Positions 25,068-61,790 of a stretch of DNA of 64,000 nt are shown piece by piece. A program made the position numbers and the translations under genes. The DNA lies in the NCBI GenBank assembly GCA_900540995.1, contig UQHO01000003.1, positions 2,965-66,964 on the forward strand, given 5' to 3'. The DNA is from an uncultured Collinsella sp. (GTDB lineage: Bacteria; Actinomycetota; Coriobacteriia; Coriobacteriales; Coriobacteriaceae). The first letter of the stretch is position 1; every line of letters begins with the position of its first letter. The notes beneath the pieces were generated by a model that did not search any database, was not told where the DNA came from, and worked only from the letters and a program-made list of their open reading frames with translations.

Positions 25068-25295
25068 TGTTCACTCCTTCTTGGGGTTTTAAGCACGGGG
25101 CGTGGCCACGATGGGTTGTCCTCGTGCCTCCTGGCTGCATCCGCGCCGCTCATGGCATTTTGCGGTTTGGACTCGACGCAGCAGGAGCCGACAAAACAAT
25201 CGGTACTATACGCGCATCGGGAGCGTATTTCCAGAAAAACCTCGTCTGCCTGCACAACTCCACAACTCCCCCGCACAAATGGGTCCCAAAAAGCT

Positions 25296-25360
25296 GTTGC
25301 GGTGAAATAGGGACTGTTTGGCGGCCTAACAGGCTTAAACAATCCGTATTTCACCGCAAC
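25296..25360. repeat. Long palindromic hairpin element, copy 1 (degenerate)
   Basis: gttgcggtgaaatagggactgtttg...caaacaatccgtatttcaccgcaac. It sits between the rplE start and the xdhC-like stop, at the left junction of the inserted block. Confidence 0.7.
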
Positions 25361-25378
25361 TTATTGGTGGGGATGCGA

Positions 25379-26422
25379 TTAGCGCTTGCGGGGGACGAGT
25401 TTGGTGCGGCGCAGGTGGATCATCTCGGCGGCGATGGAGATGGCGATCTCCTCGGGGTCCTCGGCCTCGATGGCAACGCCGATCGGAAGGTGCAGCTCGT
25501 CGATCTGGTCCTGCGTAAAGCCTTCCTGCTCCAGGCGGGCGCGCACAAAGGCCGTCTTGCGGCGCGAACCCAGACAGCCCAGGTAGGCAGGCTTGGCACG
25601 CATGGCCTGAATCACCACGTCGATATCGGACTTGTGACCCGCCGTGGCGACGACCACCAAGTCGCGCGGACCGATGGGACACAGCTCGCTCAGGTTCTTG
25701 TAATCGACCAGGCGACGATCGTAGACACCGGGCACCCATTCGGGCGTCAACGTGCCGGGGCGGTCATCGCAGGCCACGACGGCAAAGCCCGCCGCCGTGA
25801 GCACGCGCGCCGTCGCGGCGCCCACGTGTCCGCAGCCAAAGATGTAGGTCAGGCCCTCGGGGCAGAGCGTCTCGACGTGCGCCGCGGGAATCTCGGAGGC
25901 GGCGTTAGTGTAGGTGACGTTACTCCCCTCCTCCACCAGTGAAAGCCCGGGGCAGCCCGCAATGGTATGGCGCGATGCCTCGCCATGGTACTCGGCCACA
26001 TCGCCCTCGAGCGCGCTCGCGATAAACGGTTCAAAGTCGATGACGAAGTCGCCGATGCGCCGATAGACCAAGACGTCGGCAATTTCCTGGAACAACGGTG
26101 CCTGGGTCGCATCCAGATGTAGGTAGCACAGGCAGATGGCTCCGCCGCAGATCATGCCGGTATCGGAGTTCTCGCCGCCCATGGTGTAGCGGACCAGACG
26201 CGATTGCCCCGCGGCCAGCAGCTCTCGCGCCTCGTCCAGCGCAAAGAGCTCGATCTTGCCGCCGCCGATGGTGCCCGCCTGGCTACCGTCGGCAAAGACG
26301 GCCATCCAGGCGCCCACGCCGCGCGGCGACGACCCCGCCGTGCCGGCTACGACCACGAGCTCGCACGTCTCGCCAGCACGCAGGGCGACAAGCGCCGCAT
26401 TCACAACATCGAGCTTTTCCAT
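25379..26422 (-). CDS. XdhC/CoxI family molybdenum-hydroxylase accessory protein
   Basis: N-terminal XdhC_CoxI region and a C-terminal Rossmann-like domain (IFGCGHVGAATARVL). It equates to the N-terminal half of E. coli YqeB. Confidence 0.75.
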   Translation of the reverse strand: MEKLDVVNAALVALRAGETCELVVVAGTAGSSPRGVGAWMAVFADGSQAGTIGGGKIELFALDEARELLAAGQSRLVRYTMGGENSDTGMICGGAICLCYLHLDATQAPLFQEIADVLVYRRIGDFVIDFEPFIASALEGDVAEYHGEASRHTIAGCPGLSLVEEGSNVTYTNAASEIPAAHVETLCPEGLTYIFGCGHVGAATARVLTAAGFAVVACDDRPGTLTPEWVPGVYDRRLVDYKNLSELCPIGPRDLVVVATAGHKSDIDVVIQAMRAKPAYLGCLGSRRKTAFVRARLEQEGFTQDQIDELHLPIGVAIEAEDPEEIAISIAAEMIHLRRTKLVPRKR

Positions 26423-26431
26423 TGCCGCCTT

Positions 26432-27226
26432 CTATCCTCTAAAGATATCGGTGAGCATAGCGAGTGCCTCGAGCACGCCGCCGCCGACCGACGTCGCCTT
26501 GTCCGAAATGTAGTTGATATAGCTGGCATCGCCACGCGGATCGACATCGGCGCATTTAAAGCCCTCAGTCACCTGCACGCCGTTCGCCAAAAGCCCGCGC
26601 AGGCAGCCATCGATCTGCGTGCACATGGGCGTATCGTCCGCGTAGCCAATCACGTCTCCGGCGCTCACGATGTCGCCGATTGCGCGGTCGGACCGAAACA
26701 CGCCGGCGGCGGGGCTGTGGATAACGCGCTCCTTGCCATAGCCGGCGATCACGCCCGGCACGCCCGTGTTGGGCTGGGGCGAGCCCTGGGTAATGACGCG
26801 GCCCAAAAAATGCCCGCGCATGGTCTCGACCACGGCGTCGCAATCGACCGGCGCGGTAAAGCCCGGCCCCACGGCGATGACGGTAGGCGCCATGTCGCGC
26901 GTGGTGCCCAGGTTGCGCTTGGCCAAAATCGCGTCGACCACAGCTGCGGGTTTAAGCTCATCGAGCATCTTGGCCTGAGGGTCCACCACGACGGCAACAT
27001 CCCCCGCTTGGGTAATCTCGAGCGCCTCTGCCGGCGTCTGCGCCAAGCGAGCGCGAATGCCCTCGACCTGGACCTCGCCCAGGCGAATAGCCTCGCAAAA
27101 ACTGATTGTGCGGCGGATGCACGTGGGAACCGCGATATCGGCCATAACGACCGACACGCCGGCGCGCACCAAGCGAGCGGCGACACCCGTGGCGATATCG
27201 CCGGCGCCGCGAACATAAACGAGCAT
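26432..27226 (-). CDS. Selenium-dependent molybdenum hydroxylase system protein, YqeB/EF2563 family (C-terminal-half type)
   Basis: A 264-aa protein with the MLVYVRGAGDIATGVA N-terminus. It is adjacent to the xdhC-like and yqeC-like genes. The family assignment is from memory of TIGR03309. Confidence 0.55.
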   Translation of the reverse strand: MLVYVRGAGDIATGVAARLVRAGVSVVMADIAVPTCIRRTISFCEAIRLGEVQVEGIRARLAQTPAEALEITQAGDVAVVVDPQAKMLDELKPAAVVDAILAKRNLGTTRDMAPTVIAVGPGFTAPVDCDAVVETMRGHFLGRVITQGSPQPNTGVPGVIAGYGKERVIHSPAAGVFRSDRAIGDIVSAGDVIGYADDTPMCTQIDGCLRGLLANGVQVTEGFKCADVDPRGDASYINYISDKATSVGGGVLEALAMLTDIFRG

Positions 27227-27328
27227 TCCCGGGGCACCTCCCTGTGCTACGGTTTGAGCAGAGCAAAAGCGGCTCGACCGCTACTCTGATGATTATTTAT
27301 TATCACAGTATTATACGGCGGTGAACAG

Positions 27329-28063
27329 ATGGAAACGGTTAGCGGCAATCTTGCCTCGGCGCTCAGGATCGAGCCGGGCATTACCGCGATTATCGGCAGC
27401 GGCGGCAAGTCGACGTTGCTGAAGACGCTGGGTCTCGAGCTCATGCGCGCCGGCGGCAGGGTGCTTCTCTGTACCACCACGCACATGTTTCCCGTCGCCG
27501 GCGTGCCATGGGACGGGTCGAGCCGTCGCCTGAACGCCGCGCCTTGGAAGCCGGGGACCCTGCATGTTCCCGGCTGTACCTGCGAGGCATGCGCGGGCAT
27601 GAGCCGCGGAAGTATCTGCCAGGCGGGCGTTTTGGACCCGGAGACAGGCAAGCTCTCCTCCCCTGCCGAGCCGCTCGACCAGCTGGCGCAGCGCTTTGAC
27701 TACGTCCTGGCCGAGGCGGACGGCAGCAAGCGGCTCCCGCTCAAGGCCCACGCCGCCTGGGAGCCGGTGATTCCCTCTGGCACGGCCAACATCGTCTGGA
27801 TCGCCGGCGCCTCAGGGCTCGGCAAGCCCATCAACGAAGCCGTCCACCGCCCCGAGCTCTTTTGCGAGCGTTGCGGCTGCGAGCCTACCGACATCGCCAC
27901 ACCCGAGCGCGTCGCCATGGTGCTCAATGCCGAGATGCAGGCGCTGAAACTCAGCACCGCACGCGTCATGCTCAACCAAGTCGACACGCTCAGCGACCCC
28001 ACGATGGCCGACCGCTTCGAGGCAGCTCTCGACCGCCCCGTCGTCGCCAGCAGCCTCAAGTAG
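27329..28063 (+). CDS. YqeC-family selenium-dependent hydroxylase accessory protein (P-loop)
   Basis: A 244-aa protein with the Walker-A-like IIGSGGKSTL motif. This matches the size and context of the YqeC family (TIGR03172). Confidence 0.6.
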   Translation: METVSGNLASALRIEPGITAIIGSGGKSTLLKTLGLELMRAGGRVLLCTTTHMFPVAGVPWDGSSRRLNAAPWKPGTLHVPGCTCEACAGMSRGSICQAGVLDPETGKLSSPAEPLDQLAQRFDYVLAEADGSKRLPLKAHAAWEPVIPSGTANIVWIAGASGLGKPINEAVHRPELFCERCGCEPTDIATPERVAMVLNAEMQALKLSTARVMLNQVDTLSDPTMADRFEAALDRPVVASSLK

Positions 28064-28075
28064 CCGGCCCCATCT

Positions 28076-28150
28076 CCTCAGTTGCGGTGAAATACGGACT
28101 GTTTGGCCGCCCGACGGCCGCAAACAGTCCGTATTTCACCGCAACTGAGG
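28076..28150. repeat. Long palindromic hairpin element, copy 2 (near-perfect; likely bidirectional terminator)
   Basis: cctcagttgcggtgaaatacggactgtttggccg...cggccgcaaacagtccgtatttcaccgcaactgagg, a perfect stem of about 30 bp. It lies between the convergent yqeC-like and hydantoinase genes. Confidence 0.75.
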
Positions 28151-28172
28151 AGGGGACACGGCATCTTTGCTG

Positions 28173-29540
28173 CTAGCGGGGGACGTAGCGGCCGGGCTGG
28201 GCTCCGGTGGGCTCGCCGTCGCGTGCCGCCAGCACGCCGTTCACAAACACGGCCTTGGCGCGGCCATGTGCCTCAAAGCCCTCGAGCGGCGTGTAGTCCA
28301 CGGCCTGATGCTGTGTCGCGGCGCTGATCGTCCAACGCGCGCAAGGATCCCACACGCACACGTCGGCATCGGCACCCTCGGCAAGACAGCCCTTGCGCGG
28401 GTACATGCCAAACACGCGCGCCGGGTTCTCGCTCATCAAGCGGCAGAGGTCCTCGGGTCCCAGCTGTCCCTCAAAGCTCGTGGCAATCGCGACGGGACGA
28501 TGCTCCACGCCGGGCCCGCCGTTGGGAATCGCGCGGAAATCGTCGCGCCCGCGGTCCTTTTGCCCGTGCAGGTTAAAGCTGCAATGATCGGTCGCAATCG
28601 TATCGATCTCGCCGGCCACAAGCGCCTCGCGCAGCGCGGCACGGTCGCCGGCATGGCGCAGCGGCGGGCTCATCACGTACTTGGCGCCCGCAAAGCCGTC
28701 CTCGCCCTGCTCCAGATAGCAGGTGTCGTCGAGCATCAGATACTGAGGGCAGGTCTCGACATAGATATTCTTCTGCCCGCGCGCCTTGGCCGCACGAATG
28801 GCCTCGAGCCCCAACTTGGTCGAAAGGTGCACCACGTTGACTGGGGCGTCGCCGGCCAGGTGCGCCAGATACAGCAGGCGGCTCACGGCTTCGGCCTCAC
28901 ACACGTCCGGGCGGCTGAGCGCATGCCCCTCGGGCCCATGAATCCCCTGCTCGTACACGCGCTTCTGCAGCTCATTCACCAGCGTACCGTTCTCGCAATG
29001 CACGCACAGTATGCCGCCAATACGCTTGAGCTCCTCGAGCACCTCGAGCGTCTCGGCATCGTCCAGGCGCAAATGATCGTAGGCAAAGTAGGTCTTAAAC
29101 GACGATACGCCCGCCTCGCGCATAGCCGAAAGATCGGCGCGGTTGCGTTCATTCCACTCGGCGAGTGCCATATGAAAGGCGTAGTTGGCCGTGCAGGTTC
29201 CGTCGGCACGGCGATGCCACTCGGCCAAGGCATCGGGCATGGTCACGCCGCGGTCGGCCGTCGCGTAGTCCACGATGGTCGTCGTACCGCCGCAGGCAGC
29301 CGCACGCGTGCCGGTTTCAAAGCTATCGGCTGTCCAATCCATGCCGGTCCAGCACTGCATGTGCGTGTGGCCGTCGATAAAGCCGGGAAACACCCAGCAG
29401 CCCGCGGCGTCCTCGACGGTATCGTCGGCGCCCGGCTCAATCGCCGCGGCAATCCGCACGATCTTATCGCCCTCCATGGCAAGATCGGCGCGGCGAAGCC
29501 CCTGGGGCGTCACGAGCGCGCCGTTTTTGATGATGATCAT
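28173..29540 (-). CDS. Cyclic amidohydrolase (D-hydantoinase/dihydropyrimidinase, HyuA-like)
   Basis: A 455-aa protein with the metal-binding GFIDGHTH motif and a hydantoinase-like sequence. An AAGGAG RBS is present. Confidence 0.8.
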   Translation of the reverse strand: MIIIKNGALVTPQGLRRADLAMEGDKIVRIAAAIEPGADDTVEDAAGCWVFPGFIDGHTHMQCWTGMDWTADSFETGTRAAACGGTTTIVDYATADRGVTMPDALAEWHRRADGTCTANYAFHMALAEWNERNRADLSAMREAGVSSFKTYFAYDHLRLDDAETLEVLEELKRIGGILCVHCENGTLVNELQKRVYEQGIHGPEGHALSRPDVCEAEAVSRLLYLAHLAGDAPVNVVHLSTKLGLEAIRAAKARGQKNIYVETCPQYLMLDDTCYLEQGEDGFAGAKYVMSPPLRHAGDRAALREALVAGEIDTIATDHCSFNLHGQKDRGRDDFRAIPNGGPGVEHRPVAIATSFEGQLGPEDLCRLMSENPARVFGMYPRKGCLAEGADADVCVWDPCARWTISAATQHQAVDYTPLEGFEAHGRAKAVFVNGVLAARDGEPTGAQPGRYVPR

Positions 29541-29548
29541 GTTGCTCC

Positions 29549-30163
29549 TTATCGATTCATACAGTTGGCCACGCGATCAAAATACGAGCAGGCGGCAATA
29601 TGCTCCGCTATGCGTCGCTGTCCCTTGGCGGTATCGACATCCCACAGCTCGTAGGCACGCGCTTCGACCAGCGTGACGTCGACGCGACCTTTGAGAATCG
29701 AACCGCCGCCGTCCTTGCCCTCAAGACACATAAGTGCATCGAACAGTTCCGCCGGAAAGAGCACCGGACTCGAAGGCTCACCGCTGCACGCCAAGCGCAC
29801 CGGATGTTTGCGGCCACGCTCGTCAAACGCGTGAACCATGGCATCAAAAGAATCCGCGCTCACAAGCGGCTGGTCGCCCGGCAAAAAGAGGCAACCTTTC
29901 CAGTTGCGTTCGACTCCCCACGAAAGGCCCGCACGGACGCTTTCGCTGCGCAGCTCGCCATCGTGCAGCACGCACGGGCAATGCTTGTCCTCGCAAATCT
30001 GGGCGACCTCGGGCCAACGCGTCGAGACCACAACGTCAAAGCCCCGGGGAACCGAATCGATGGTCCGGGCAATCAGCGGCTCGCCATAGATATCGGCAAG
30101 CATCTTGTTAGAGCCAAACCGCTTGCCCTCGCCCGAGGCCATAATGACGCATCCAAGTTTCAT
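29549..30163 (-). CDS. MobA-like nucleotidyltransferase (molybdenum cofactor cytidylyltransferase MocA/YgfJ-like)
   Basis: N-terminal CVIMASGEGKRFG motif. The start was set at MKLG, which has a GGGGAGG RBS. Confidence 0.7.
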   Translation of the reverse strand: MKLGCVIMASGEGKRFGSNKMLADIYGEPLIARTIDSVPRGFDVVVSTRWPEVAQICEDKHCPCVLHDGELRSESVRAGLSWGVERNWKGCLFLPGDQPLVSADSFDAMVHAFDERGRKHPVRLACSGEPSSPVLFPAELFDALMCLEGKDGGGSILKGRVDVTLVEARAYELWDVDTAKGQRRIAEHIAACSYFDRVANCMNR

Positions 30164-30313
30164 GGTGATACCTCCCCTGAAACCATCGTACCCATAACTC
30201 GCGCCGCGGGCATCCACATCGAAAGCACTTATCCCGCACGCCCGCGATGCAAAAAAGGGGCACCCCGCCGATTGGCAGAGCGCCCCCTTTACATGGCTTA
30301 CCTCAACCCGGCT

Positions 30314-31516
30314 TTAGGCCTGGAGCCAACGAGCGGTGTTGCGCTCGTCGAGGGCCTTGAGGGTAGCGGCGGGATCGGCAACCTTCTGCAGGAACATCAT
30401 GGCAGCGATGGCGTACGGCTTGTAGCTGGCCTCCTTGTACATGCCCACGCGGTGCATGTCGAAGACGTCGGCGTTAACCTCGCCGTGCTCGCAGGAGACA
30501 CCGGAGATGTCGGCGGGCAGCGGGTGCATAAAGATGGTGTCCTGGCCGTTGGCAGTCTTCTCCATGAGCTCGGTCGTAGAGCACCAGTCCTGATGGGTGG
30601 CGTTCTGGGCGAGCAGCTCCTTCTCGAGCGCAGCGATGCCGGCGTCGTCGCCCTCGGCGTACAGGTTGGTACGCTTCTCCATGGCGGCAAACGGAGCCCA
30701 GCTCTTGGGGATCACGATGTCGGCGCCCTCGAAGGCCTCGGCCATGGTGTTGACCTGCTTAAAGGTGGTGCCGGACTCGGCGGCATAGCCCTTGGCGCGC
30801 TCGACGACCTCGGGCATGAGGTCGTAGCCCTCGGGGTGGGCCAGGGTGACGTCCATGCCAAAGCGGGGCAGCAGGCTGATCAGCGACTGCGGGCAGGACA
30901 GCGGCTTGCCGTAAGAGGGCGAATAGGCCCAGGTGACGGCAACCTTCTTGCCCTTGAGGTTCTCGAGGCCGCCAAACTCGTTGATGAGGTAGAGCATGTC
31001 GGCAGAGGACTGCGTGGGGTGATCGGAGTCGGACTGCAGGGAAATAAGCGTGGGACGGTGATCCAGAACGCCGTCCTCGTAGGCCTGCTGCACGGACTCG
31101 GAGACCTCGGCCATGTAGGCATCGCCCTTGCCGATGTACATGTCATCGCGGATGCCGATGACGTCGGCCATGAAGGAGATCATGGTAGCGGTCTCGCGGA
31201 CGGTCTCGCCGTGGGCGATCTGGGACTTCTTCTCGTCCAGGTCCTGCAGCTCAAGGCCGAGCAGGTTGGCGGCCTTAGAGAAAGAGAAGCGCGTACGGGT
31301 GGAGTTGTCGCGGAACAGGGAGACTGCCAGGCCCGAGTCGAAGATCTTGGACGAGACGTTGTTCTCGCGCAGCTCGCGCAGGGCGTCGGCGACGATGTAG
31401 AGCGCCTTGAGCTCGTCGGTGGTCTTGTCCCAAGTGTGCAGGAAGTCGCTACCGTACATACCCTTAAAATCGAGGCCGTTCAGCTGCTCGACGAGCTCGG
31501 TAAACTTAGCGTCCAT
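30314..31516 (-). CDS. YgeW-family knotted carbamoyltransferase
   Basis: STRTR and HPTQ carbamoyltransferase motifs. It is 400 aa from the MDAKFTELV start, compared with the 396-aa E. coli YgeW. The track ORF begins 186 nt upstream. Confidence 0.8.
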   Translation of the reverse strand: MDAKFTELVEQLNGLDFKGMYGSDFLHTWDKTTDELKALYIVADALRELRENNVSSKIFDSGLAVSLFRDNSTRTRFSFSKAANLLGLELQDLDEKKSQIAHGETVRETATMISFMADVIGIRDDMYIGKGDAYMAEVSESVQQAYEDGVLDHRPTLISLQSDSDHPTQSSADMLYLINEFGGLENLKGKKVAVTWAYSPSYGKPLSCPQSLISLLPRFGMDVTLAHPEGYDLMPEVVERAKGYAAESGTTFKQVNTMAEAFEGADIVIPKSWAPFAAMEKRTNLYAEGDDAGIAALEKELLAQNATHQDWCSTTELMEKTANGQDTIFMHPLPADISGVSCEHGEVNADVFDMHRVGMYKEASYKPYAIAAMMFLQKVADPAATLKALDERNTARWLQA

Positions 31517-31717
31517 GGAAATGTCCTTTCTAAAGATGAAACGATCGCAATGAGTAGATGTGCTCCGGCATGCGCGTGTGGCTAGAACATGCAGAGCACC
31601 ATGACGAGGACCCGCCACCGTTGAGGAAGCATGGGAGATAACGACCGCGGGCCCCAAGTCAACAGGGGGTGCCGGGGACACGAGCGTCCCCCGGCTCAAC
31701 AAAATCGAGGAATGGGA

Positions 31718-33103
31718 CTAATCGATCTTGTTGTTGGTCAGACCGGCACGGAACACGGTGGCGTCGCCATCGGCCTGGCTCGGATCGTAGAGGTTCAGGG
31801 CAGCCACATACATGGCGGCAGCGGTGACCAGGTCGTCCTTGTAGGTGACCTCGTTGGGAGCGTGAGCCTGAGACTCGGCACCCGGGCCAAAGCCCACGCA
31901 GGGGATGCCGTAGCGGCCCTGGATGGAGACGCAGTTCGTGGAGAAGGTCCACTTGTCGCACAGCGGGCGACCGGTGCGCTTGTCCATGCTGGGCTCGCAG
32001 CCGATGCGCTCGTCACCAAACATGGCCTTGTGGGCGTCGACGAGGGCCTTGACGTGCGGAGCGGTCTCCTTGTTGATCCACGTGGGGAAGTAAGCCTCGG
32101 TCTCGTAGACCTCGCCGGTCCAGGACGGACGGTCGTACATGTACATGGAGACCTTCACGTCGTCGCCGTACTTCTTGGCAGCCGGCAGGTTGCGGATCTC
32201 GTCCAGGCAGGACTCCCAGGTCTCGCCGGCGGTCATGCGACGGTCGATGGAGATGGCGCAGGAGTCGGCCACGGCGCAACGGCTGGGGCTGGTGTAGAAG
32301 ATCTGGCTGACGGTGCAGGTGCCGCGGCCCAGGAAGCGGGCATCCTCGAAGTGCTCGGGATTGTACTTGGGGTCGAGCATCTTGACGAGACCCTTGATGT
32401 CGGTCGACTCGTCGCAGCCGTTGTTGTTGAGGGCGCGGACGTCGGCGATGATGTCGGCCATCTTGTAGATGGCGTTGTCGCCGCGGTCGGGAGCGGAGCC
32501 GTGGCAGGAGGTGCCGTGAACGTCGACGCGGATCTCCATGCGGCCGCGGTGACCGCGGTAGATGCCGCCGTCGGTGGGCTCGGTGGAAATGACGAACTCG
32601 GGCTTAATGCCGTCCTTGTTGTAGATGTACTGCCAGCACATGCCGTCGCAGTCCTCTTCCTGGACGGTGCCGACGACCATGATCTTGTAGCCCTCGGGGA
32701 TGAGGCCCATGTCCTTCATCATCTTGGCAGCGTAGGTAGCAGAAGCCATGCCGCCCTCCTGGTCGGAGCCGCCGCGGCCGTAGATGATCTCGTCGGTCTC
32801 GTAGCCCTCATAGGGATCGGCGTCCCAGTTCTCGATGTTGCCGATGCCGACAGTGTCGATGTGGGAGTCGATGGCGATGATCTTGTCGCCCTCGCCCATA
32901 AAGCCCATGACGTTGCCCAGGCCGTCGACCTTGACCTCGTCATAGCCAAGGCTCTCCATCTCGGCCTTGATGCAAGCGACAACCTCGCCCTCCTCGCAGG
33001 ACTCAGAGGGATGGGAGATCATAGCGCGCAGGAAGCGAGTCATATCAGCACGATGGGACTCAGCAGCAGCCTTGATAGCGTCGAAATCGAGTTCTTTAGC
33101 CAT
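31718..33103 (-). CDS. M20 family peptidase, YgeY-like
   Basis: M20/ArgE/DapE motifs ([17 protein letters not shown]). It lies between the ygeW-like and dpaL-like genes. Confidence 0.75.
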
Positions 33104-33177
33104 TGTTCATAACCTTTCAAACGAAGGAATCTACCTGTGAGGTGGCGGAGCGATACCTATTTACTCCGCCCCAACGA

Positions 33178-34392
33178 TTAGCAAGTGGGATATTCGCCTT
33201 CCCAAACAATGCGGCGATACTGGTCGGGATCGGTGTCGCCCTCGGTGGAGAAGCAGAGCACGGAGCTCGTCTTGTCCAGGCCGATGAGCTCCTTGAGCTC
33301 GGCGTACTCGGGATCGAGCATGATGGTCTCGACCAGGCCGGTGGTCACTGCGCCGGACTCGCCGGAGATGACGCGCGGGTCGCCCTTCTCGGGAGCGCCC
33401 AGGGTACGCATGCCGCGAGCGGTGACCCAGTCGGGGCAAGACACGAAGGCGGTGGTGTGGTTGCGCAGGATATCCCAGCCCAGGATGTTGGGCTCGCCGC
33501 AGCACAGGCCGGCCATGATGGAAGGCATGTCGCCGTCCACGATACGCGGATCGCCATCGCCGGCGGCAGCACCCTTGTACAGGCAGGCGGCAGGCGCGCA
33601 CTCGACCACAACAAAGGTCGGCGGGTTATCGGGATACAGGTTGGTGAAGTAGCCCACCACGGCGCCGGCCAGCGAGCCCACGCCAGCCTGGACAAAGACG
33701 TGCGTCGGGCGGTTGATGGCCATCTCGCGCAGCTGCTCGGCAGCCTCGGAAGCCATGGTGCCGTAGCCCTCCATGATCCAAGACGGGATCTTCTCGTAGC
33801 CCTCCCAGGCGGTGTCCTGAACGATAACGCCGCGCTCGCAGGCGTCGGCCTCGGCGGCCGCCATGCGCACGCACTCGTCGTAGTTGACCTCTTCGATGGT
33901 CACCGTGGCGCCCTCGGCGGCGATGTTATCGAAGCGGGGCTTGGTGGAACCCTTGGGCATGTGCACGACAGCCTTCTGGCCCAGCTTGTTGGCAGCCCAT
34001 GCCACGCCGCGGCCATGGTTGCCGTCGGTGGCGGTAAAGAAGGTAGCCTGGCCAAAGTCCTTGGCAAGCTGATCGGAAGTCAGGTAATCGAAGGTGCACT
34101 CGGCAACGTCCTTGCCGGTCTCGTCGGCAATGTAGTTGGCCATGGCAAACGAGCCGCCCAGGACCTTAAAGGCGTTGAGGCCAAAGCGATAGCTCTCGTC
34201 CTTAACGCACAGGTTGGACAGGCCCAGACGCGCGGCCTGGCCGTCCAGGCGGGCAAGCGGAGTGACGGTGTACTGGGGGAACGACTGGTGGAAGGCGCGG
34301 GCCTTCTTCACGTGGTCGAGACTCATGATTCCCAAGTGCTTGTCATCGCTCTTGGGCATCGTGTTGCTCGCCCACTGGATCTTATCGGCCAT
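33178..34392 (-). CDS. dpaL: Diaminopropionate ammonia-lyase (YgeX-like, PLP-dependent)
   Basis: A 404-aa PLP fold-type II protein with strong resemblance to DpaL/YgeX. An AAGGAG RBS is present. Confidence 0.8.
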   Translation of the reverse strand: MADKIQWASNTMPKSDDKHLGIMSLDHVKKARAFHQSFPQYTVTPLARLDGQAARLGLSNLCVKDESYRFGLNAFKVLGGSFAMANYIADETGKDVAECTFDYLTSDQLAKDFGQATFFTATDGNHGRGVAWAANKLGQKAVVHMPKGSTKPRFDNIAAEGATVTIEEVNYDECVRMAAAEADACERGVIVQDTAWEGYEKIPSWIMEGYGTMASEAAEQLREMAINRPTHVFVQAGVGSLAGAVVGYFTNLYPDNPPTFVVVECAPAACLYKGAAAGDGDPRIVDGDMPSIMAGLCCGEPNILGWDILRNHTTAFVSCPDWVTARGMRTLGAPEKGDPRVISGESGAVTTGLVETIMLDPEYAELKELIGLDKTSSVLCFSTEGDTDPDQYRRIVWEGEYPTC

Positions 34393-54605: not shown

Positions 54606-54957
54606 TTGACCACCAATCCTCGAAGTAGTTGTTTTCGCATCTAACGCTCTATTGTGACGCAGTGCGGGGTTGAGGTTGTGCCTTCATTGCATATCGTATT
54701 AAAGATGATTCTCATTCTCAATAATAATTTTTTGTTATCAGACCATTCTTCAGCTGAAATAACGCATTTCCGCAGGTCAGGAAAGTGTCTGGTCAAAATA
54801 ACATCTAACTTTTCTTTTGGTCAACCGTTTACCGCTAAATTCCTACCGTTCGTCTGCATTACGCAATGTACCTGCGGATATACGAGATGGTGGGCAGCGT
54901 GTTACCATGAGAAAAAATTGTTATGAACATTTCCGTTTTCACCCAAAGGAGTTGCCC
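54606..54957. promoter_or_regulatory. AT-rich divergent promoter/operator region (permease and yheO-like regulator)
   Basis: About 350 bp with markedly low GC (about 35-40%) in a roughly 63% GC genome, with ataacgca-type motifs shared with the 34393-34669 region. Confidence 0.35.
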
Positions 54958-55614
54958 GTGAACGAGACCGTACGCCGCTTTTTGCCGATGGTCGATTTTC
55001 TGGAGCAGATACTCGGCAAAAACAGCGAAATCGTGCTGCACGATTTCTCGGATCCCGACCACGCCATCGTCGATATTCGCAACGGCATCGTGAGCGGCCG
55101 CAAGGTCGGCGGTCCCGCCACCGATCTGGCACTCAAGATCATGCACGACGCCAAGTATCGCGACCTGCCGTTTATTACGGGCTACGAGGGGCGCGGTGCC
55201 GGCGGCAAGACGTTGGAGTCGGCGACGTACTTTATCCGCGAGAATGACGAGATCGTCGGTATGCTCTGCGTCAACACCGACCTCTCGACCGTACGCTCCA
55301 TCAACGCCATGGCGCAGCAGCTCATGGCGTGCTTCGACGCGGCGCCGACGCGCACGGAGCCCGCCCCTATCGAGGTCGAAAGCCTTTCGGAGTCCACACA
55401 GGAGCTCATTGACCGCAGCATTGCCGAGTTGCTGAGCGCGCGCGGGCTGGATGTAGCGTCGCTTGGTCAGAGCGACCGCGTGGACGTCATTCGCCACCTC
55501 AACGGCAACGGGGTGTTCATGCTCAAGGGCGCCGTGGCCTGCGCCGCCACCGCGCTGGGCATCTCGGAGCCCAGCGTCTACCGCTACCTGCAAAAAGTTC
55601 GCAAGGAGGGCTAA
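54958..55614 (+). CDS. YheO-like PAS-domain/HTH transcriptional regulator (second copy)
   Basis: It aligns with the 34670-35323 protein. The GTG start has an AAGGAG RBS 6 nt upstream. Confidence 0.65.
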   Translation: MNETVRRFLPMVDFLEQILGKNSEIVLHDFSDPDHAIVDIRNGIVSGRKVGGPATDLALKIMHDAKYRDLPFITGYEGRGAGGKTLESATYFIRENDEIVGMLCVNTDLSTVRSINAMAQQLMACFDAAPTRTEPAPIEVESLSESTQELIDRSIAELLSARGLDVASLGQSDRVDVIRHLNGNGVFMLKGAVACAATALGISEPSVYRYLQKVRKEG

Positions 55615-55726: not shown

Positions 55727-56104
55727 TTAGAGAGCGGCGACGACCTCGATCTCGACCAGACCGCCAGCCGGAAGGGCGGCAACCTGGAAAGCGCTGCGCG
55801 CGGGGAACGGGGCCTCGAACTTGGAGGCGTAGATCTCGTTCACGGCAGCGAAGTCGGCAATGTCGGCCAGGTAGACCGTGGTCTTGACGACATCGGCAAA
55901 CGTAGCGCCGGCGGCAGTCAGCAGGGCCTCGACGTTAGCAAGGGACTGCTTGGCCTGGGCCTCGACGCCCTCGGGCATCTTGCCAGTTGTGGGGTCGATG
56001 CCCAGCTGGCCGGACAGGAACACCATGTTGCCGGTCTGGATACCGGGGGAATACGGTCCGATGGCTGCGGGTGCGTTATCGGAAGACACGACGGTCTTGC
56101 TCAT
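55727..56104 (-). CDS. ridA: RidA family (YjgF/L-PSP) imine deaminase
   Basis: A 125-aa RidA-fold sequence, with an ATG that has an AAGGAG RBS. Confidence 0.8.
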   Translation of the reverse strand: MSKTVVSSDNAPAAIGPYSPGIQTGNMVFLSGQLGIDPTTGKMPEGVEAQAKQSLANVEALLTAAGATFADVVKTTVYLADIADFAAVNEIYASKFEAPFPARSAFQVAALPAGGLVEIEVVAAL

Positions 56105-56404
56105 GTTTTTCTCCTTACGATCAGATAGAGAGCGTGAGCGCGGCGTTCGCACCGGGAGGCACAATTCGGTCTGAACACCGCGCTTGATTTGGGATAGTAC
56201 TCAAGGTTTCTGTTTGATGCAAGAATATTATCAGCTGGAGAGAATATTTTATCGCCCAACGGCGCCCGTTGGCAGCTGAACGGTTCTCCACGGGGTCAGC
56301 CAGCCTAAGCTGCTGAAGACTTTATCCCGCTTGGAGCACGGGCATCGCCTGCCGCAACGGCACCACTATACTTTTGAATATCTGAGCATTTTGAAAGGCA
56401 GGAT

Positions 56405-58897
56405 ATGACCGCAACCGCCAGTCGAACCACCAACCGCAGACCCGAGCTTTTGGCGCCCGCCGGAGGGCCCGAGCCCTTTGCCGCCGCGCTCGCTGCCGGG
56501 GCAGACGCCATCTACTGCGGCATGGGCAGCTTCAACGCCCGCCGCAAGGCAACCAACTTTACCGACGAGGCCTTTGAGCAAGCCTGCCGCGCCGCGCATC
56601 TAGCCGGGTCGCGCGTCTACGTCACGGTAAACATCGTCATCAAGCAGTCTGAGATGGGCGATGCGCTGCAACTCATCCATCGCTGCTCCACGCTGGGCGC
56701 CGACGCCTTCATTATCCAGGACTGGGGTCTGTTCTTTGAGGTCAAGCGCACCATGCCCGGCATCGAGACACACATCTCGACCCAGGCGAACATCCACGAC
56801 GACCGCGGAACCCTTTGGTGCCGTGAGCAGGGCGCCGACCGCGTGACTCTCTCGCGCGAGCTCTCCATCGACGAGATCGCCGCCATTCACAACGCCGCGC
56901 CCGATGTGGACCTTGAGGTCTTTAGCCACGGTGCCATCTGCTTTTGCTACTCGGGTCTGTGCCTGCTGTCGAGCTTTGCCATGGCTGGCCGCTCGGCCAA
57001 CCGCGGCATGTGCGCCCAGCCCTGCCGCCTACCCTACAAGCTAATTGACGAGAACGGCCGCTCGCTCTCCCCTGCCGGACGCGAGCGCGCGCTGTGCCCG
57101 CGCGACACCAACACTTCGCAGCTTGTTCGCCGTCTGTATGACGCCGGCGCCGCATCGCTCAAGCTCGAGGGCCGCATGAAGGCCCCCGATTACGTGTATT
57201 CCATCGTCGACGTGTATCGTCATCAGATTGATGACATGCTGGCCGATGTTTCGACCTCTAAGGATGAGGATGCGGCCCGCCAGCGACAGCTCAAGCGCTG
57301 CTTTAACCGCGACTTTACGCACGCCTACCAAGACGGTACCTCGGGTGACGAGATGATGAGCTACGAGCGCTCCAACAACCGCGGCCAGATCGTGGGCACG
57401 GTGCTGGGCAGCCGCCCGGCCAACCGCGATGTGCGCGGCCTCAAGCCCGACGACCGCCGTCGGCGCGCCGCCATCGCCCGCATTGAGTTGTTTGAGCCCG
57501 TGGGCAAGGGCGACCTGCTGGAGCTTCGCCACGATAACGAGTTTGACCAGTTCCTGACCACCATTGCCGCCGATGATGCCGCCGCCGGTGACATCATCGA
57601 GTGCCGCGTGCCTCGCAGCATGCCCGAGGGCTGCCGCGTGCGCGTGATTCGAAGCCAGCGCGCCATTGACGCTGCCGGCGCCGCGCTCAAGCGCGATGTG
57701 CTGCGCCGCCGCGCCGTTGATGTAACCGTTGTGGCGCGTTTGGGCGAACCGTTTGCCGTCACGCTTACTTGCTGCGACGCCCCTTCGCTTACGGCCACGG
57801 CCACGGGCTTTACCGTCGAGGCCGCCAAGACCCGCGCGGTCGAGGCGTCCGATCTGGTAGAGCATGTGGGCCGCATGGGGTCCTCGCCCTTTGAGTCCGC
57901 GAGCTTTGATGTGGCGCTCGATAAGGGCTGCGGCATGGGCTTCTCCGCTGTGCACAAGGTGCGCGCCGCCGCCTGCAAGGCGCTGGAGGAGGCCATTCTG
58001 GCACCGTATGACGAGCGTGCCCGCACGCTCGAGCTGCCGGTGCTCGACAAATGTACGCGGCCCATGCCCGAGCACTACCGCGACGAGCCGCAGATCTGCG
58101 CCACCGTCACCTCGCTCGAGGCCGCCGAGGCAGCGCGAGCGGAGGGTGCAACGCGCATCTACATGACCACCGACGCGCTCGATGCGGCCGAGCTCTCCCC
58201 CGCCGATGCGTTTGAGCAGGGCATCGTGCCCGTGCTCGACGAGGTCTGCCGTGCCGTTGACCACGAGCGCGTCGACCCGTGGGTTGTTGCCGGCGCCACG
58301 GTCGCTATTGGCAACATCTCTGAGCTTGCCCTGGCCGCCCAGGTTGGCGCCACGGCCGAGATTCGCTCTTGCCTGCCGGTGCACAACACGCCCTGCATGG
58401 AGGCGCTTGCCGAGCGCGGGGCCGGTGCGTTTTGGCTCTCGCCCGAGATCACGCTCGACGAGATTGTCTCGTTCGGCGCCGCCGCGCCCGCGACTCTGGG
58501 CATCACCGTCTTTGGCCGCCCACGCGTCATGACAAGCGAGCATTGCATTCTGCAGGTTGCCAACGGCTGCATCCACGATTGCGCCAACTGCCGCCTGCGT
58601 GCCCGCAAGCTCTCGCTCAAGAATATCGACGGCAAGGTCATGCCCGTACGCACCGACATCCATGGCCGCTCTCGCTTGTACGATGCTTACCCCATCGACC
58701 TCACGCCGCAGGTACCGCAGTTGCTCGACGCCGGCGTCCGTCGTCTTATGGTCGACGGAACCTTGCTCGAGGCCGATGAGATTGGCCGTGCCGTCGCTCG
58801 CGTCCGTCGCGCCGTCGAGGCGGCTCAAGCCGGCCGCAAGCCCGCCGCCCGCCTGCGCGGCGCCACCTCGGGCTGCATGTTTGTGGGAATTAGCTAA
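56405..58897 (+). CDS. Peptidase U32 family protein, long form (830 aa)
   Basis: U32 N-terminus (PELLAPAGG...IYCG...FNAR, Cys cluster) with a C-terminal extension of about 400 aa. It is a paralog of the 8150-10108 gene. Confidence 0.8.
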   Translation: MTATASRTTNRRPELLAPAGGPEPFAAALAAGADAIYCGMGSFNARRKATNFTDEAFEQACRAAHLAGSRVYVTVNIVIKQSEMGDALQLIHRCSTLGADAFIIQDWGLFFEVKRTMPGIETHISTQANIHDDRGTLWCREQGADRVTLSRELSIDEIAAIHNAAPDVDLEVFSHGAICFCYSGLCLLSSFAMAGRSANRGMCAQPCRLPYKLIDENGRSLSPAGRERALCPRDTNTSQLVRRLYDAGAASLKLEGRMKAPDYVYSIVDVYRHQIDDMLADVSTSKDEDAARQRQLKRCFNRDFTHAYQDGTSGDEMMSYERSNNRGQIVGTVLGSRPANRDVRGLKPDDRRRRAAIARIELFEPVGKGDLLELRHDNEFDQFLTTIAADDAAAGDIIECRVPRSMPEGCRVRVIRSQRAIDAAGAALKRDVLRRRAVDVTVVARLGEPFAVTLTCCDAPSLTATATGFTVEAAKTRAVEASDLVEHVGRMGSSPFESASFDVALDKGCGMGFSAVHKVRAAACKALEEAILAPYDERARTLELPVLDKCTRPMPEHYRDEPQICATVTSLEAAEAARAEGATRIYMTTDALDAAELSPADAFEQGIVPVLDEVCRAVDHERVDPWVVAGATVAIGNISELALAAQVGATAEIRSCLPVHNTPCMEALAERGAGAFWLSPEITLDEIVSFGAAAPATLGITVFGRPRVMTSEHCILQVANGCIHDCANCRLRARKLSLKNIDGKVMPVRTDIHGRSRLYDAYPIDLTPQVPQLLDAGVRRLMVDGTLLEADEIGRAVARVRRAVEAAQAGRKPAARLRGATSGCMFVGIS

Positions 58898-58912: not shown

Positions 58913-59572
58913 GTGAACGAAGAACCTCAAGTCCTCTACTGCGACGCCTGGCTCATGGCTATCGATAAGCCTGCCGGCATGATCGTCCACGGTGACGGCA
59001 CCGGCGAGCGCACACTTACCGACTACGCCAGCGACCTGCTGCTGGCGATGGGCGACGGCTTTGCCGCGACCGACATGCAACCGCTCAACCGCTTGGACCG
59101 CGACACCACCGGCGTGGTGTTGTTCTCGCTCGACAAGCGGACGCAGCCCGCTTTTGACCAGATGGTCATCGACCACGCATTCGAAAAGCACTATCTGGCG
59201 CTCGCCGAGGGCAAGATCGACTGGAACGAAAAGCTCATCGACAAGCCCATCGCCCGCGACCGCCACGACAGCCGCAAGATGCGCGTCGGCGCCAGCGGCA
59301 AGCCGTCTCAGACGCGCGTCAAGGTACTCAAGCGCCTTAAGAGCCGCCGAGGCCTGCCCGCGCGTTCGTATATCGATGTTGAGCTGCTCACCGGCCGCAA
59401 GCATCAGATTCGCGTGCACCTGGCCAGCGAGCGTCACCCCCTGGTTGGCGACGACCTGTACGGAACGCCGCGCCCCTGCGGCCTGATGCTCCACGCCCAC
59501 AGCGTGTCCTTCACGCATCCCGTAACCGGCGAGCACATCCACATCGAAGCCCCCTGCCCCTGGGAGCCCTAA
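58913..59572 (+). CDS. RluA family pseudouridine synthase
   Basis: NRLDRDTTG catalytic motif. It starts 16 nt after the U32 gene. Confidence 0.8.
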   Translation: MNEEPQVLYCDAWLMAIDKPAGMIVHGDGTGERTLTDYASDLLLAMGDGFAATDMQPLNRLDRDTTGVVLFSLDKRTQPAFDQMVIDHAFEKHYLALAEGKIDWNEKLIDKPIARDRHDSRKMRVGASGKPSQTRVKVLKRLKSRRGLPARSYIDVELLTGRKHQIRVHLASERHPLVGDDLYGTPRPCGLMLHAHSVSFTHPVTGEHIHIEAPCPWEP

Positions 59573-59632: not shown

Positions 59633-60379
59633 CTAGACCGTGATGACGTTGTCCATTGCCCGGTACTTGGCGGGGACCTCGCCTGCGGTAATAATCGTTG
59701 CGTCGCGGAAGTCCGCGAACTTGACGGGCGCCACCATGCCAAATTTACTGGCGTCCGAGATTACGAAGCGTTTGGCGGTATGGCGCATCGAGATACGCTT
59801 GACCTGTGCTTCCTCGATATCCGGTGTGGTGAGACCTTGCTCGGCCGCGATGCCGTTGGATCCCCAAAAGCCGCAGTTGAAGTTATAGCGGTCCAGGGTT
59901 GCCAAGGCATCGGGGCCAACGAGCGCCTCGGTCTCGGGTTTGAGCTCGCCGCCCAGCACCACGGTACGCATGCCGCGCAAAGCAAGGTGCTGAGCATGGA
60001 GCACGGAATCGGTCACATAGGTGACGCCGTCGAGACGCGGAAGATGCTCGATGAGCTTGAGGGTCGTTGAGCCCGAATCGATATACACAAAGCTATCGGG
60101 CTCCACCAGGGCCGCGGCACGAGCACAGATGCGCTCCTTGTCATCGTTATGGAGATCACTGCGTTCGCTGATCGTCAAGTCGCGCGTCACGTGCGCGCGC
60201 TCCAGACTCGTCGCACCTCCGTGCACCTTGGCGATACGGTGCGCGCGGTCGAGCGTTTGCAAGTCACGGCGAATGGTGGACGGTGTCACGCCCAGGGCCT
60301 CGGCAAGTTCCGGCACGGTAACCGAGCCGGCCTGCTGCACCATCGACACGATCGCATTGAGCCTATCTTCCGCAAGCAT
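59633..60379 (-). CDS. DeoR/GlpR family transcriptional regulator
   Basis: N-terminal HTH (VTVPELAEALGVTPSTIRRDL) and a C-terminal DeoR sugar-binding domain. Confidence 0.85.
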   Translation of the reverse strand: MLAEDRLNAIVSMVQQAGSVTVPELAEALGVTPSTIRRDLQTLDRAHRIAKVHGGATSLERAHVTRDLTISERSDLHNDDKERICARAAALVEPDSFVYIDSGSTTLKLIEHLPRLDGVTYVTDSVLHAQHLALRGMRTVVLGGELKPETEALVGPDALATLDRYNFNCGFWGSNGIAAEQGLTTPDIEEAQVKRISMRHTAKRFVISDASKFGMVAPVKFADFRDATIITAGEVPAKYRAMDNVITV

Positions 60380-60382
60380 CGC

Positions 60383-61462
60383 TTACTCCTCCTCGGGGTA
60401 GACGACTCCCCAATCGGCGCGGAGCTTGGTCATGAGCTCCATCACATCAGAAGCATAATCCAGAAGCTCACGCTTGGAATCGTCGCCGGCGACGGCCTGC
60501 TCGAGGTCAGCCATCTCGTAGCACAGGGCATAAGCCTCGGTGCCAGCGTGGACCTCCTCACGGCGACCGTCCGCAGTCCACACGATGGTCGCATGGTCGG
60601 CGCGCGGATACTCGTTGACCTCGATATAGCACTTGTCGAAGCTAATGACCGAACGCTTGGGCTGCTTGGAGTGGAGCGTGAGGCTCACCACGCCCAGCTG
60701 CTGTTCGGCATTACGGCAGACGATGCCGCCTGCAACGTCCACGCCGGTCTTGCAGGTGTTACCCAGAGACACGACCTCGACGGGCTGGCTCGCCATAAAC
60801 AGGCGCATGACGGACAGGGCGTATACGCCAATATCGAGCATGGCACCGCCGGCGAGGTTGCGATTGTAGAAACGGTTGGTCAGGTCGCCGTACTCCTTGT
60901 AGCTACCAAAGTTGAGCTGAGCGAGGTTCATGCGGCCAAACTCGCCGGCATCCATGCGGCAGCGCAGCTCTTGATACAAGGGCATGTGGAGCACCGTGGT
61001 AGCGTCCATAAGAACCACGTTGTGTTCGGCGGCAATGGCGCGGGCCTCTTCGAGCTCGGCGGAGTTGAGCGTGATGGCCTTCTCGCAGAGCACGTGCTTG
61101 CCGGCCGCCAGGGCGGCGCGCAGATAGGTGATATGGGTGTTGTGCGGGGTGGTGATGTAGACGGCGTCGATGTCAGGATCGGCGTAGAGATCCTCAACCG
61201 TGTCATAGACCTTCTCAACGCCATACTGTTCTGCAAAAGCCTGAGCCTTGGACAACGTGCGGTTGGCAACGCCCGCGAGCTTTCGGCCGGCAAGGGCAAG
61301 GGACTGAGCCATCTGGTTGGCAATAACGCCGCAACCGATCACAGCCCAACGGAGCTCGGGAGCCGTAAAGATGTCGTTAGGGAACGGCTTGTCCTGGACC
61401 GAAGCAAATGCTGCTTTGGCGGCTGCCGCGGCGTCGAGTGGAGCCTGCTTGGAATCTGCCAT
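60383..61462 (-). CDS. Gfo/Idh/MocA family NAD(P)-dependent oxidoreductase
   Basis: Rossmann motif AVIGCGVIANQ and the EKA motif. It is co-directional with, and 3 nt upstream of, the DeoR gene. Confidence 0.8.
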   Translation of the reverse strand: MADSKQAPLDAAAAAKAAFASVQDKPFPNDIFTAPELRWAVIGCGVIANQMAQSLALAGRKLAGVANRTLSKAQAFAEQYGVEKVYDTVEDLYADPDIDAVYITTPHNTHITYLRAALAAGKHVLCEKAITLNSAELEEARAIAAEHNVVLMDATTVLHMPLYQELRCRMDAGEFGRMNLAQLNFGSYKEYGDLTNRFYNRNLAGGAMLDIGVYALSVMRLFMASQPVEVVSLGNTCKTGVDVAGGIVCRNAEQQLGVVSLTLHSKQPKRSVISFDKCYIEVNEYPRADHATIVWTADGRREEVHAGTEAYALCYEMADLEQAVAGDDSKRELLDYASDVMELMTKLRADWGVVYPEEE

Positions 61463-61729
61463 TATGTGTCTCCTGTGTCATAGAACGTCTTGCATTTCTG
61501 ACAGCTCTATATTCGCACAAACACGCGCGTTTGTGCGCGTTTTTGCGTATCTCACCGCTAAACGGTCATTATTGCCCCGTAAACGGCGCATATATACGCA
61601 TAGGTGCGTAATTAAACGCAATCTAACGCGCATAAACGCGCACACAAGCAATTTATACAGCACGACCCGCTCATTTATGCTTACCCAGTTAGGGTACTCA
61701 TTTAAGTCTGTCCCAAATGAGTGGGGATA
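61463..61729. promoter_or_regulatory. Promoter/operator region of the oxidoreductase-DeoR operon, with repeated AAACGCGCA-like motifs
   Basis: The hairpin cgcacaaac-acgcgc-gtttgtgcg and repeated (a)aacgcgca(c) and cgcatag motifs in an AT-enriched stretch. Confidence 0.35.
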
Positions 61730-61762
61730 GAAAAAGGCCCGGGTGCCGTGGCATCCGGGCCT
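61730..61762 (-). terminator. Rho-independent terminator immediately downstream of rplX
   Basis: Minus-strand reading gives ggcccggatgccacggcacccgggcc followed by tttttc. This ends the upstream r-protein transcript before the inserted block. Confidence 0.7.
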
Positions 61763-61790
61763 TTGCTAGCAACTTGATGTTGCGGGCAGC

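Follow-up and report, generated by a model that had tools for sequence, protein, structure and literature searches.

A family-wide break between rplX and rplE in the Coriobacteriaceae, with a uric-acid gene cluster in the gap in Collinsella aerofaciens and a candidate leader RNA upstream of rplE

The window analyzed is a 64,000-nucleotide stretch of DNA from an uncultured Collinsella sp. (assembly GCA_900540995.1, contig UQHO01000003.1, positions 2,965 to 66,964) and belongs to the Collinsella aerofaciens species complex. Its ribosomal protein genes lie on the minus strand in two halves. The upstream half ends with rplX at 61791 and the downstream half starts with rplE at 25067, leaving a gap of 36,723 bp (25068-61790) with about 30 genes. 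An earlier note, made from the sequence alone, had described this separation of about 36.7 kb and had explained it as a block inserted horizontally into an intact operon, splitting it. The separation was confirmed by NCBIfam gene calls and by independent assemblies. The insertion account held only in part, as the break is common to all Coriobacteriaceae sampled and its contents differ. The rplX/rplE break is a family-level trait of Coriobacteriaceae. It is likely to be an old, vertically inherited feature located at a pre-existing regulatory boundary that repeatedly gains genes.

The upstream half (61791-63897), identified by NCBIfam equivalogs, runs from the 3' part of rpsC to rplX. It comprises rpsC (63592-63897, the listed open reading frame (ORF) being the C-terminal part of S3 only), rplP (63089-63592), rpmC (62874-63089), rpsQ (62597-62857), rplN (62110-62478) and rplX (61791-62096). 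The downstream half extends from rplE to rplQ (15343-25067). Its first four genes, rplE (24510-25067), type-Z rpsN (24245-24430), rpsH (23727-24125) and rplF (23157-23693), were named by NCBIfam and the remainder by Pfam-annotated gene calls of identical relatives. rplQ (15343-15810) was located with ORF calls based on third-position GC content (GC3) and gene calls in identical relatives. NCBIfam equivalog models covered the genes as far downstream as rplF and every score was over the curated cut-off. Between them NCBIfam, the GC3-guided ORFs and the relatives' gene calls gave a full set of spc and alpha genes in canonical order and orientation. The classical spc operon, contiguous from the rplN promoter, is not present; the gap, a terminator-like hairpin and a separate promoter-like site intervene. 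An assembly artefact was rejected because numerous assemblies made independently, megabase contigs and the complete chromosome AP031421.1 among them, show the same arrangement. The window's exact L24 and L5 sequences are present in tens of thousands of gut assemblies, and its L5 protein matches proteins named Collinsella with complete or almost complete identity. In C. aerofaciens-type genomes with both halves on one contig the gap measured 36.7 kb (the window), 40.4, 43.5 and 51.4 kb. The block is therefore fixed in position and variable in size.

The block consists of old residents, a purine cluster of native composition and a strain-variable defence island. Nearest to rplX are gfo, encoding a Gfo/Idh/MocA oxidoreductase (60383-61462, minus strand), and a DeoR regulator gene (59633-60379, minus strand). 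These are followed on the plus strand by genes for an RluA-family pseudouridine synthase (58913-59572) and a U32 peptidase or TrhP-like protein (56405-58897), all four being identified by NCBIfam. Genes for a Rid-family deaminase (55727-56164, minus strand) and a YheO-like PAS/HTH regulator (54817-55614, plus strand) were identified by NCBIfam and Pfam. The first part of the purine cluster (45231-54605, minus strand) encodes a xanthine/uracil permease, SsnA, YgfK, a 4Fe-4S ferredoxin and a selenium-dependent xanthine dehydrogenase (XDH)-type molybdenum hydroxylase. Its second part, with cofactor maturation genes (25379-35323), encodes a YheO-like regulator, YgeX, YgeY, YgeW, MocA/YgfJ, D-hydantoinase (HyuA), YqeC, YqeB and XdhC. 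Both parts were annotated with NCBIfam. Between them lies the strain-variable island (35324-45230), recognized from codon usage, Rfam, Pfam, PADLOC and strain comparison. A second U32 peptidase paralogue was found at 8150-10135.

The distribution of the break was examined by scanning one genome per GTDB species, using an L5 alignment headed by an outgroup sequence. This gave 80 named loci, and the distance from rplX to rplE was determined by tblastn. Outgroups were reached by searching with the 61-amino-acid type-Z S14 encoded downstream of rplE and then inspecting the contigs. Searching for homologues of L5 gave only matches of at least 88% identity, all from Collinsella, plus one odd chimeric assembly, and was of no help with outgroups. 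When L5 was searched against 50%-identity representatives, only representatives at 50-67% were returned, and these were not used further.

The rplX/rplE break was found in every Coriobacteriaceae lineage sampled, with gap contents that differ by lineage. In Coriobacterium glomerans PW2 the gap is 1.66 kb and holds one opposite-strand Mem_trans gene. Collinsella intestinalis DSM 13280 (L113) has the order rplX, gfo, U32 (opposite strand), rplE and a gap of 4.58 kb, and gfo also follows rplX in locus L105. The gap in Ca. Limicola is about 7.2 kb with RluA, U32, a membrane protein and an aminotransferase. RluA and U32 lie directly upstream of rplE in Collinsella sp. An268 and Ca. Coprousia. Upstream of rplE, C. 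tanakaei has a methionine ABC transporter (metNIQ), Asp23/DUF2273 and YebC, and Enorma has TetR, SDR, RlaP and variable defence genes. Within 10 kb of rplE, C. phocaeensis shows none of the genes of the window. The only gap genes recurring between lineages are the RluA/U32 pair and gfo. RluA and U32, with gfo in Collinsella, are the oldest recognizable residents of the gap. In the synteny comparison proposed in the earlier note, no relative within the sampled family had an empty site with rplX and rplE adjacent; the break is family-wide with differing genes. The edge of the gap next to rplX was also variable. One genome whose L24 is identical to that of the window (L010, GCA_027494345.1) has PNP_UDP, a PRD regulator, a mannose-type phosphotransferase system (PTS), GH172 and ROK genes after rplX rather than gfo and deoR, and the rplX-proximal edge therefore also turns over.

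Outside Coriobacteriaceae rplX and rplE are neighbours and the length of the spacer rises stepwise by group. The spacer is 5 nt or the genes overlap in three basal Coriobacteriia metagenome-assembled genomes (MAGs; L060, L051 and L052), while five other basal MAGs have 86-107 nt. It measures 121-242 nt in QAMH01-like genomes, 154-157 nt in Anaerotardibacter and locus L053, 290 nt in an Eggerthellaceae MAG and 289-355 nt in Atopobium, Lancefieldella, Thermophilibacter and Olsenella. Larger inserts occur in some Atopobiaceae. O. uli has an insertion of 633 nt, and that of Olsenella sp. SIG37 (L055) is 1057 nt with an ORF for a 214-amino-acid membrane protein. Atopobiaceae RUI268 (L054) has no rplX within 10 kb and carries HAD-like and CarD-like genes upstream of rplE. 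The Atopobiaceae insertions are independent of those in Coriobacteriaceae.

On the insertion account a foreign purine island of 36.7 kb recently split the intact spc operon of this strain or species. Two features of the purine genes would suit it. The cluster is missing from the rplE locus in C. intestinalis, C. tanakaei, C. phocaeensis and An268, and uric-acid use is patchy in Collinsella (bioRxiv 10.1101/2022.07.24.501321). The nested segment of about 10 kb is also compositionally foreign and strain-variable. Against this, every other Coriobacteriaceae lineage sampled has the break without the purine genes. Codon usage, measured as per-codon log-likelihood under a core model, was -0.62 to -0.95 for the purine genes and -1.05 for MocA, compared to -0.64 to -1.08 for non-ribosomal core genes. 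The old residents also resemble core genes, and only the genes at 35.6-44.9 kb stand apart (-0.98 to -1.70). No tRNA was found in the block and no direct or flanking repeats at its two junctions; the block proteins scanned showed neither an integrase nor a transposase domain. The cluster is furthermore fixed beside rplE. In 38 of 39 complex genomes xdhC lies within 2.5 kb of rplE and in the 39th it is 3.3 kb away, the 39 being GTDB species representatives with an L5 at least 98% identical and enough upstream sequence. The codon check proposed in the earlier note therefore singled out the nested segment and left the purine genes and old residents core-like. That note had expected an old arrangement to show both core-like codons and the same intervening genes across the lineage. 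The separation is old and lineage-wide and the codons are core-like, while the intervening genes differ across the family. As an explanation of the split itself recent insertion is already contradicted, and it is given hardly any credence. The uric-acid cluster came in later, between U32 and rplE, and is confined to the C. aerofaciens complex; this restriction agrees with the patchy phenotype reported within Collinsella.

Rearrangement was also considered, in which one half was displaced by an inversion or translocation and the DNA now in between is ordinary chromosomal sequence that had been close by all along. The ribosomal cluster is generally fragmented in this lineage, rpsJ being detached from rplC in Collinsella, which would fit. 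The two halves, however, keep the same order and orientation in all lineages, and gap size forms a graded series that starts at 1.66 kb with one gene, passes 4.6 and 7.2 kb and reaches 36.7-51 kb. Such grading fits stepwise insertion at one point and not the breakpoint of a large inversion, which was rejected on these grounds. Rearrangement in general is judged very unlikely. The detachment of rpsJ, seen in Collinsella loci L001-L010 in the region upstream of the window's right end, breaks the S10 cluster of this lineage at a second place. Locus L002 has cation-efflux and His_Phos_1 genes between S10 and L3, and most other genomes have an acetyl-CoA carboxylase (ACC) carboxyltransferase gene and a PTS EIIC gene in front, in place of rpsJ.

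The two boundaries of the gap carry conserved sequences. Directly after rplX is a G+C-rich hairpin with a U-tract resembling an intrinsic terminator (AAAGGCCCGGATGCCACGGCACCCGGGCCTTTTT, 61731-61764, minus strand), identified by sequence and fold. The earlier note had placed a terminator at 61730-61762. The strict terminator scan did not list the hairpin at 61731-61764. Hairpins of the same kind come after rplX in C. intestinalis, Coriobacterium, Atopobium, Olsenella and Thermophilibacter; those of an Eggerthellaceae MAG and a QAMH01-like MAG lack a clear U-tract. All lineages whose spacer is 120 nt or longer have a strong hairpin after rplX, mostly with a U-tract.

At the other boundary the earlier note had pointed to a hairpin repeat within 25068-25378 and had argued that rplE onward would need its own promoter there. 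A repeat and a promoter-like site were both found. The repeat is a near-perfect palindrome of 63 nt (25297-25359) between the xdhC stop codon and the rplE promoter, with a second copy at 28082-28144 between yqeC and hyuA. No match to the palindrome occurred in 100 shuffles. Both sites are kept in dozens of C. aerofaciens-complex genomes and the palindrome stays beside the rplE promoter even in loci with an additional permease gene. It probably acts as a bidirectional terminator or insulator, or is a REP-like element. The promoter scan of 24800-25600 found one site only, a promoter-like TGGAAA, 17 nt, TATAGT at 25205-25233 (minus strand). In the Coriobacteriaceae examined a -10 box (GCGTATAGTA / GCGTATCATACCGA / GTGTATGATATCGA) and a -35 box of the TTCTGG/TTGTAG type with a 17-18-nt spacer are conserved upstream of rplE (C. 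tanakaei, C. intestinalis, C. phocaeensis, An268, Enorma, Coriobacterium and Limicola). Atopobiaceae have a conserved TAATAT / TATTAT-type box at the equivalent place. The consensus terminator and promoter scans are weak evidence either way. The conserved promoter-like site and the leader described below lie within 25082-25233.

Between the promoter-like site and rplE lies a conserved structured element (25082-25187, minus strand), recognized by a covariance model and covariation. In the window the arms of its first hairpin, P1, are at 25178-25187 and 25128-25138. The second hairpin, P2, abuts P1, with arms at 25120-25127 and 25093-25100 and a 5 x 5 internal loop. These are followed by a tail, UUAAAACCCC (25083-25092), and the rplE ribosome-binding site (RBS, 25074-25080), all on the minus strand. 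In its general form the element has a P1 of variable length with a CYCC/GGRG base, a directly abutting P2, e.g., GUGCGAGG-loop-CCCCGCAC, often with a conserved A.C mismatch, and a single-stranded UUAAAAYCCC-like tail before the Shine-Dalgarno sequence. It is present in nearly all Coriobacteriia, including those with a spacer of 86-107 nt, and in Coriobacteriaceae it lies directly downstream of the promoter. All 19 diverse sequences that were folded individually gave two abutting hairpins, a single-stranded tail and an RBS.

The covariance model was built from seven sequences from outside Coriobacteriaceae. It gave 42 matches, one per locus and always just upstream of rplE, and the only other matches in 837 kb were two weak antisense ones at the same site. 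The window element was recovered at 25082-25148 (27.3 bits, E about 1e-4), as were other Coriobacteriaceae versions, in which the P2 loop is expanded to an internal loop (ACAAC / CCAAG) with a variable upper helix. No match was obtained in L051, L052 and L060, which have no spacer, or in L058. MAFFT alone misaligned the variable P1 hairpin and the covariance-model alignment was used instead. In this alignment 89.6% of cells pair and both sides change in 11 of 15 pairs. Double-change cells numbered 63, compared to 16.9 ± 5 in shuffles (0/500 reaching the observed value) and 4-10 with the partners slid. Support for the element comes from this covariation; single-sequence folding energy was not significant and was not used as evidence. 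Rfam 15 gave no family match over the motif at E ≤ 10 for the window, L056 or L071. The survey describing the L31-Coriobacteria leader includes no L5 or S8 leader, and the literature that was searched gave no account of the rplX/rplE break or of a leader upstream of rplE in Coriobacteriia. What is new here is the break common to the whole family, together with the candidate rplE leader RNA.

The observed gene identities, gap sizes and contents, leader conservation and covariation, and terminator and promoter sequence conservation would be accounted for by the following series. Basal Coriobacteriia would have had the usual tight rplX-rplE junction. The two-hairpin RNA element would then have arisen ahead of rplE in a spacer of 86-107 nt. 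In the QAMH01-like group, Eggerthellaceae and Atopobiaceae the spacer would have lengthened to 120-355 nt. It has a terminator-like hairpin behind rplX and a -10-like box ahead of the element, which suggests that the halves were already separate transcription units there. Once the halves were independent, DNA could be inserted between terminator and promoter without harm to ribosomal protein expression. The site would have gained genes again and again, in every one of the Coriobacteriaceae sampled and, as independent events, in some Atopobiaceae. Transcription of rplN-rplX in the window would end at the terminator (61731-61764), and rplE to rplQ would be driven by the promoter at 25205-25233 on a transcript opening with the leader (25082-25187). 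The 36.7 kb would have built up in three layers. The old residents gfo, deoR, RluA and U32 would form the first. The second would be the uric-acid cluster and its genes for Se/Mo-cofactor maturation, a single acquisition by the ancestor of the C. aerofaciens complex that is by now native in composition. The third would be the strain-variable defence island nested in this cluster. The causal order of the earlier note would thus be inverted, the boundary of terminator, promoter and leader coming first and gene accumulation after. The present 36.7 kb would be the C. aerofaciens-complex state of an old and still active insertion site.

Several points weigh against this account. The polarity of the spacer series, and with it the inferred direction of evolution, rests on L5 identity, a rough proxy for distance, and on record titles rather than a species tree. 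Sampling of Eggerthellaceae is thin, with two loci. Inserts may have been lost secondarily in Atopobiaceae or QAMH01, which is less parsimonious. The rplE promoter-like site matches the consensus at 9 of 12 positions only, and the strict promoter scan called none in the Atopobium spacer. The alignment used for covariation had been fitted to the model, and the folding energy of the window leader is no better than that of shuffles (z = -0.47). The resemblance of P2 to a truncated copy of 16S helix 21, discussed next, is suggestive and was judged by eye only. The activity of the promoter, the function of the terminator and the ligand and regulatory role of the leader are all read from sequence.

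The S8 protein of E. coli binds where rplE, the third cistron of the spc operon, begins, and so represses the operon (PMC10931766, PMC3616713), at a site that overlaps the rplE coding region (PMC3616713). Regulation of spc outside E. coli-like species was described as unknown in a 2024 review (PMC10931766). The Coriobacteriia leader might be a translational operator bound by a protein of its own operon, most likely S8, paralleling the E. coli site. The two share their place in the operon, where rplE begins downstream of rplN-rplX, and both are structured RNAs beside the rplE RBS. Mimicry of 16S helix 21 is possible. A Collinsella-type 16S rRNA was recovered through the Cor653 probe target. Its helix 21 has the strands 5' GGCAGGCC and 3' GGAACCUCC with an AA bulge. 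The short form of P2, e.g., GACGAGGUUGGAACCCCGUC, shares with it, when compared by eye, a 5'-side AGG and a 3'-side GGAACC. The two elements differ in that the Coriobacteriia element has two abutting hairpins and no sequence or Rfam-level similarity to the E. coli operator, and is upstream of the RBS where the E. coli site overlaps the coding region. S8 is a reasonable candidate for the ligand, at somewhat less than even odds.

Alternatively, the rplE RNA may not be an S8 operator, binding another protein of the operon (L5, L18, S14 or L6) or serving only as a 5' stabilizer or processing site. Its location upstream of the RBS, unlike the E. coli site (PMC3616713), and the absence of an E. coli GAUAC-type core would agree with this, and in Coriobacteriaceae, whose hairpins are 5'-terminal, a role in stabilizing the mRNA would fit as well. 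Where the spacer is 86-107 nt, however, the element lies inside the rplX-rplE transcript, a place in which a 5' stabilizer makes little sense. The single-stranded tail and RBS directly 3' of P2 are also conserved, and P2 resembles the organism's own helix 21 (5' ..AGG.., 3' ..GGAACC.., with the AA bulge), again by eye. This alternative is allowed a little under an even chance. The fuller proposal is offered only tentatively. It holds that the two-hairpin RNA is a translational operator of Coriobacteriia for S8 or another spc protein. By supplying rplE with a regulatory module of its own, the RNA would have made the universally conserved rplX-rplE junction dispensable. The junction would then have turned into a hot spot of recurrent integration, occupied in C. 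aerofaciens by the medically relevant uric-acid cluster.

The earlier note had also described a catabolic set for purines and SDMH with a nested mobile-looking segment, and this description stood. All seven genes for 2,8-dioxopurine breakdown (XDH-type hydroxylase, YgfK, SsnA, HyuA, YgeW, YgeY as well as YgeX) are clustered, together with YqeB and YqeC. NCBIfam scores (bits/cut-off) were 1129/830 for the selenium-dependent XDH, 1287/835 for YgfK, 632/444 for SsnA, 507/393 for D-hydantoinase, 728/500 for YgeW, 622/321 for YgeY, 613/532 for YgeX, 349/220 for YqeB and 155/73 for YqeC. The nucleobase permease scored 339.9 bits, under the TIGR03173 cut-off of 414, and the MocA and XdhC matches also fall under the NCBIfam cut-off. 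The anaerobic uric-acid (2,8-dioxopurine) pathway has been described in Clostridium sporogenes and E. coli (bioRxiv 10.1101/2025.04.24.650524). C. aerofaciens ATCC 25986 is reported to consume uric acid and to induce ygeX, ygeY, ygeW and ygfK (bioRxiv 10.1101/2022.07.24.501321). The cluster itself is thus already known, and the Collinsella version shares all seven pathway genes and YqeB/YqeC with the C. sporogenes cluster and the E. coli ygeW-ygfK region. It differs in location and not in biochemistry, being wedged between the spc halves and split by the defence island.

The nested segment (about 35.3-45.2 kb) has atypical codons and is replaced in sister strains. It contains a conserved hypothetical gene, a SAM riboswitch with three genes, a DEDDh exonuclease gene and the PADLOC candidates PDC-S01 (DUF4143 ATPase) and PDC-S27 (ATPase_2/DUF234). 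The slot between the second yheO-like gene and xdh differs in eight other strains, which have GmrSD, a type I restriction-modification system with an integrase, EcoRII with a methylase, AbiEi, IS elements or different DUF4143 / ATPase_2 genes. The segment is therefore a real strain-variable defence island. It resembles defence islands and integration hot spots between core genes in its strain-specific restriction-modification, GmrSD, Abi, IS and candidate defence genes. Unlike such hot spots, it shows no dedicated integrase or att site in the window, and it is nested in a catabolic cluster that is itself nested in a ribosomal cluster. The SAM riboswitch is at 36700-36790 on the plus strand (RF00162, 45.4 bits, gathering score 44.4). 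Directly 3' of it is a three-gene operon on the same strand (36799-37551, 37548-39362 and 39509-40780) with atypical codon usage and no match in Pfam or PADLOC. Three direct repeats of 23 nt (TTACGCCATTCTCAATG...) are located at 43346-43437 and a perfect palindrome with 25-nt arms (TTACGTTATAGCTAGCTATATTATA) at 44902-44957, at the xdh-side edge of the island. These are possible operator or recombination sites.

Some further features of the ribosomal proteins and the window were recorded. L24 of the Coriobacteriia inspected (61791-62096 in the window; loci L036, L040 and L045-L080) has a C-terminal CxxC...CxxC zinc-ribbon with a sub-threshold match to the YnfU zinc-binding family. L5 of Coriobacterium glomerans PW2 (L036, 7230-7928) has an insertion of 47 residues rich in Ala, Lys and Ser just after the conserved MAEEK N-terminus. 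An L31-Coriobacteria ribosomal leader was matched at 679-714 on the minus strand (RF03128, 35.1 bits, cut-off 33). After truA the region 12500-14400 has a lower GC content (0.57) and includes a family-2 glycosyltransferase gene with low GC3 (13224-14264, minus strand).

Breaks in the S10-spc-alpha cluster are known from other actinobacteria. Mycobacteria have a gap between rpsQ and rplN and Corynebacterium glutamicum has one after rplE. As in those cases, a conserved ribosomal row is interrupted lineage-wide by non-ribosomal genes and the halves keep their order and orientation. The Coriobacteriaceae differ in having the breakpoint at rplX/rplE, inside the classical spc operon. Their break coincides with a conserved RNA element and is a recurrent insertion site whose contents vary between genera and even strains.

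A family-wide break is thus documented inside one of the most conserved gene junctions of bacteria, and an autonomous module of terminator, promoter and leader that was already in place is offered as a mechanistic reason for its position. The candidate rplE leader, the most novel by-product of the analysis, is a covariation-supported candidate at the place of known spc autoregulation in E. coli. If its proposed role is true, it would be the first spc-operon regulator of this kind outside Gammaproteobacteria; if only the gene-order part holds, the result would be a modest comparative-genomics note. In an abundant human gut species the uric-acid cluster sits in a hot spot beside highly expressed genes and is split by a strain-variable island. 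This bears on strain differences in urate metabolism and on metagenomic binning and marker-gene synteny in Collinsella.

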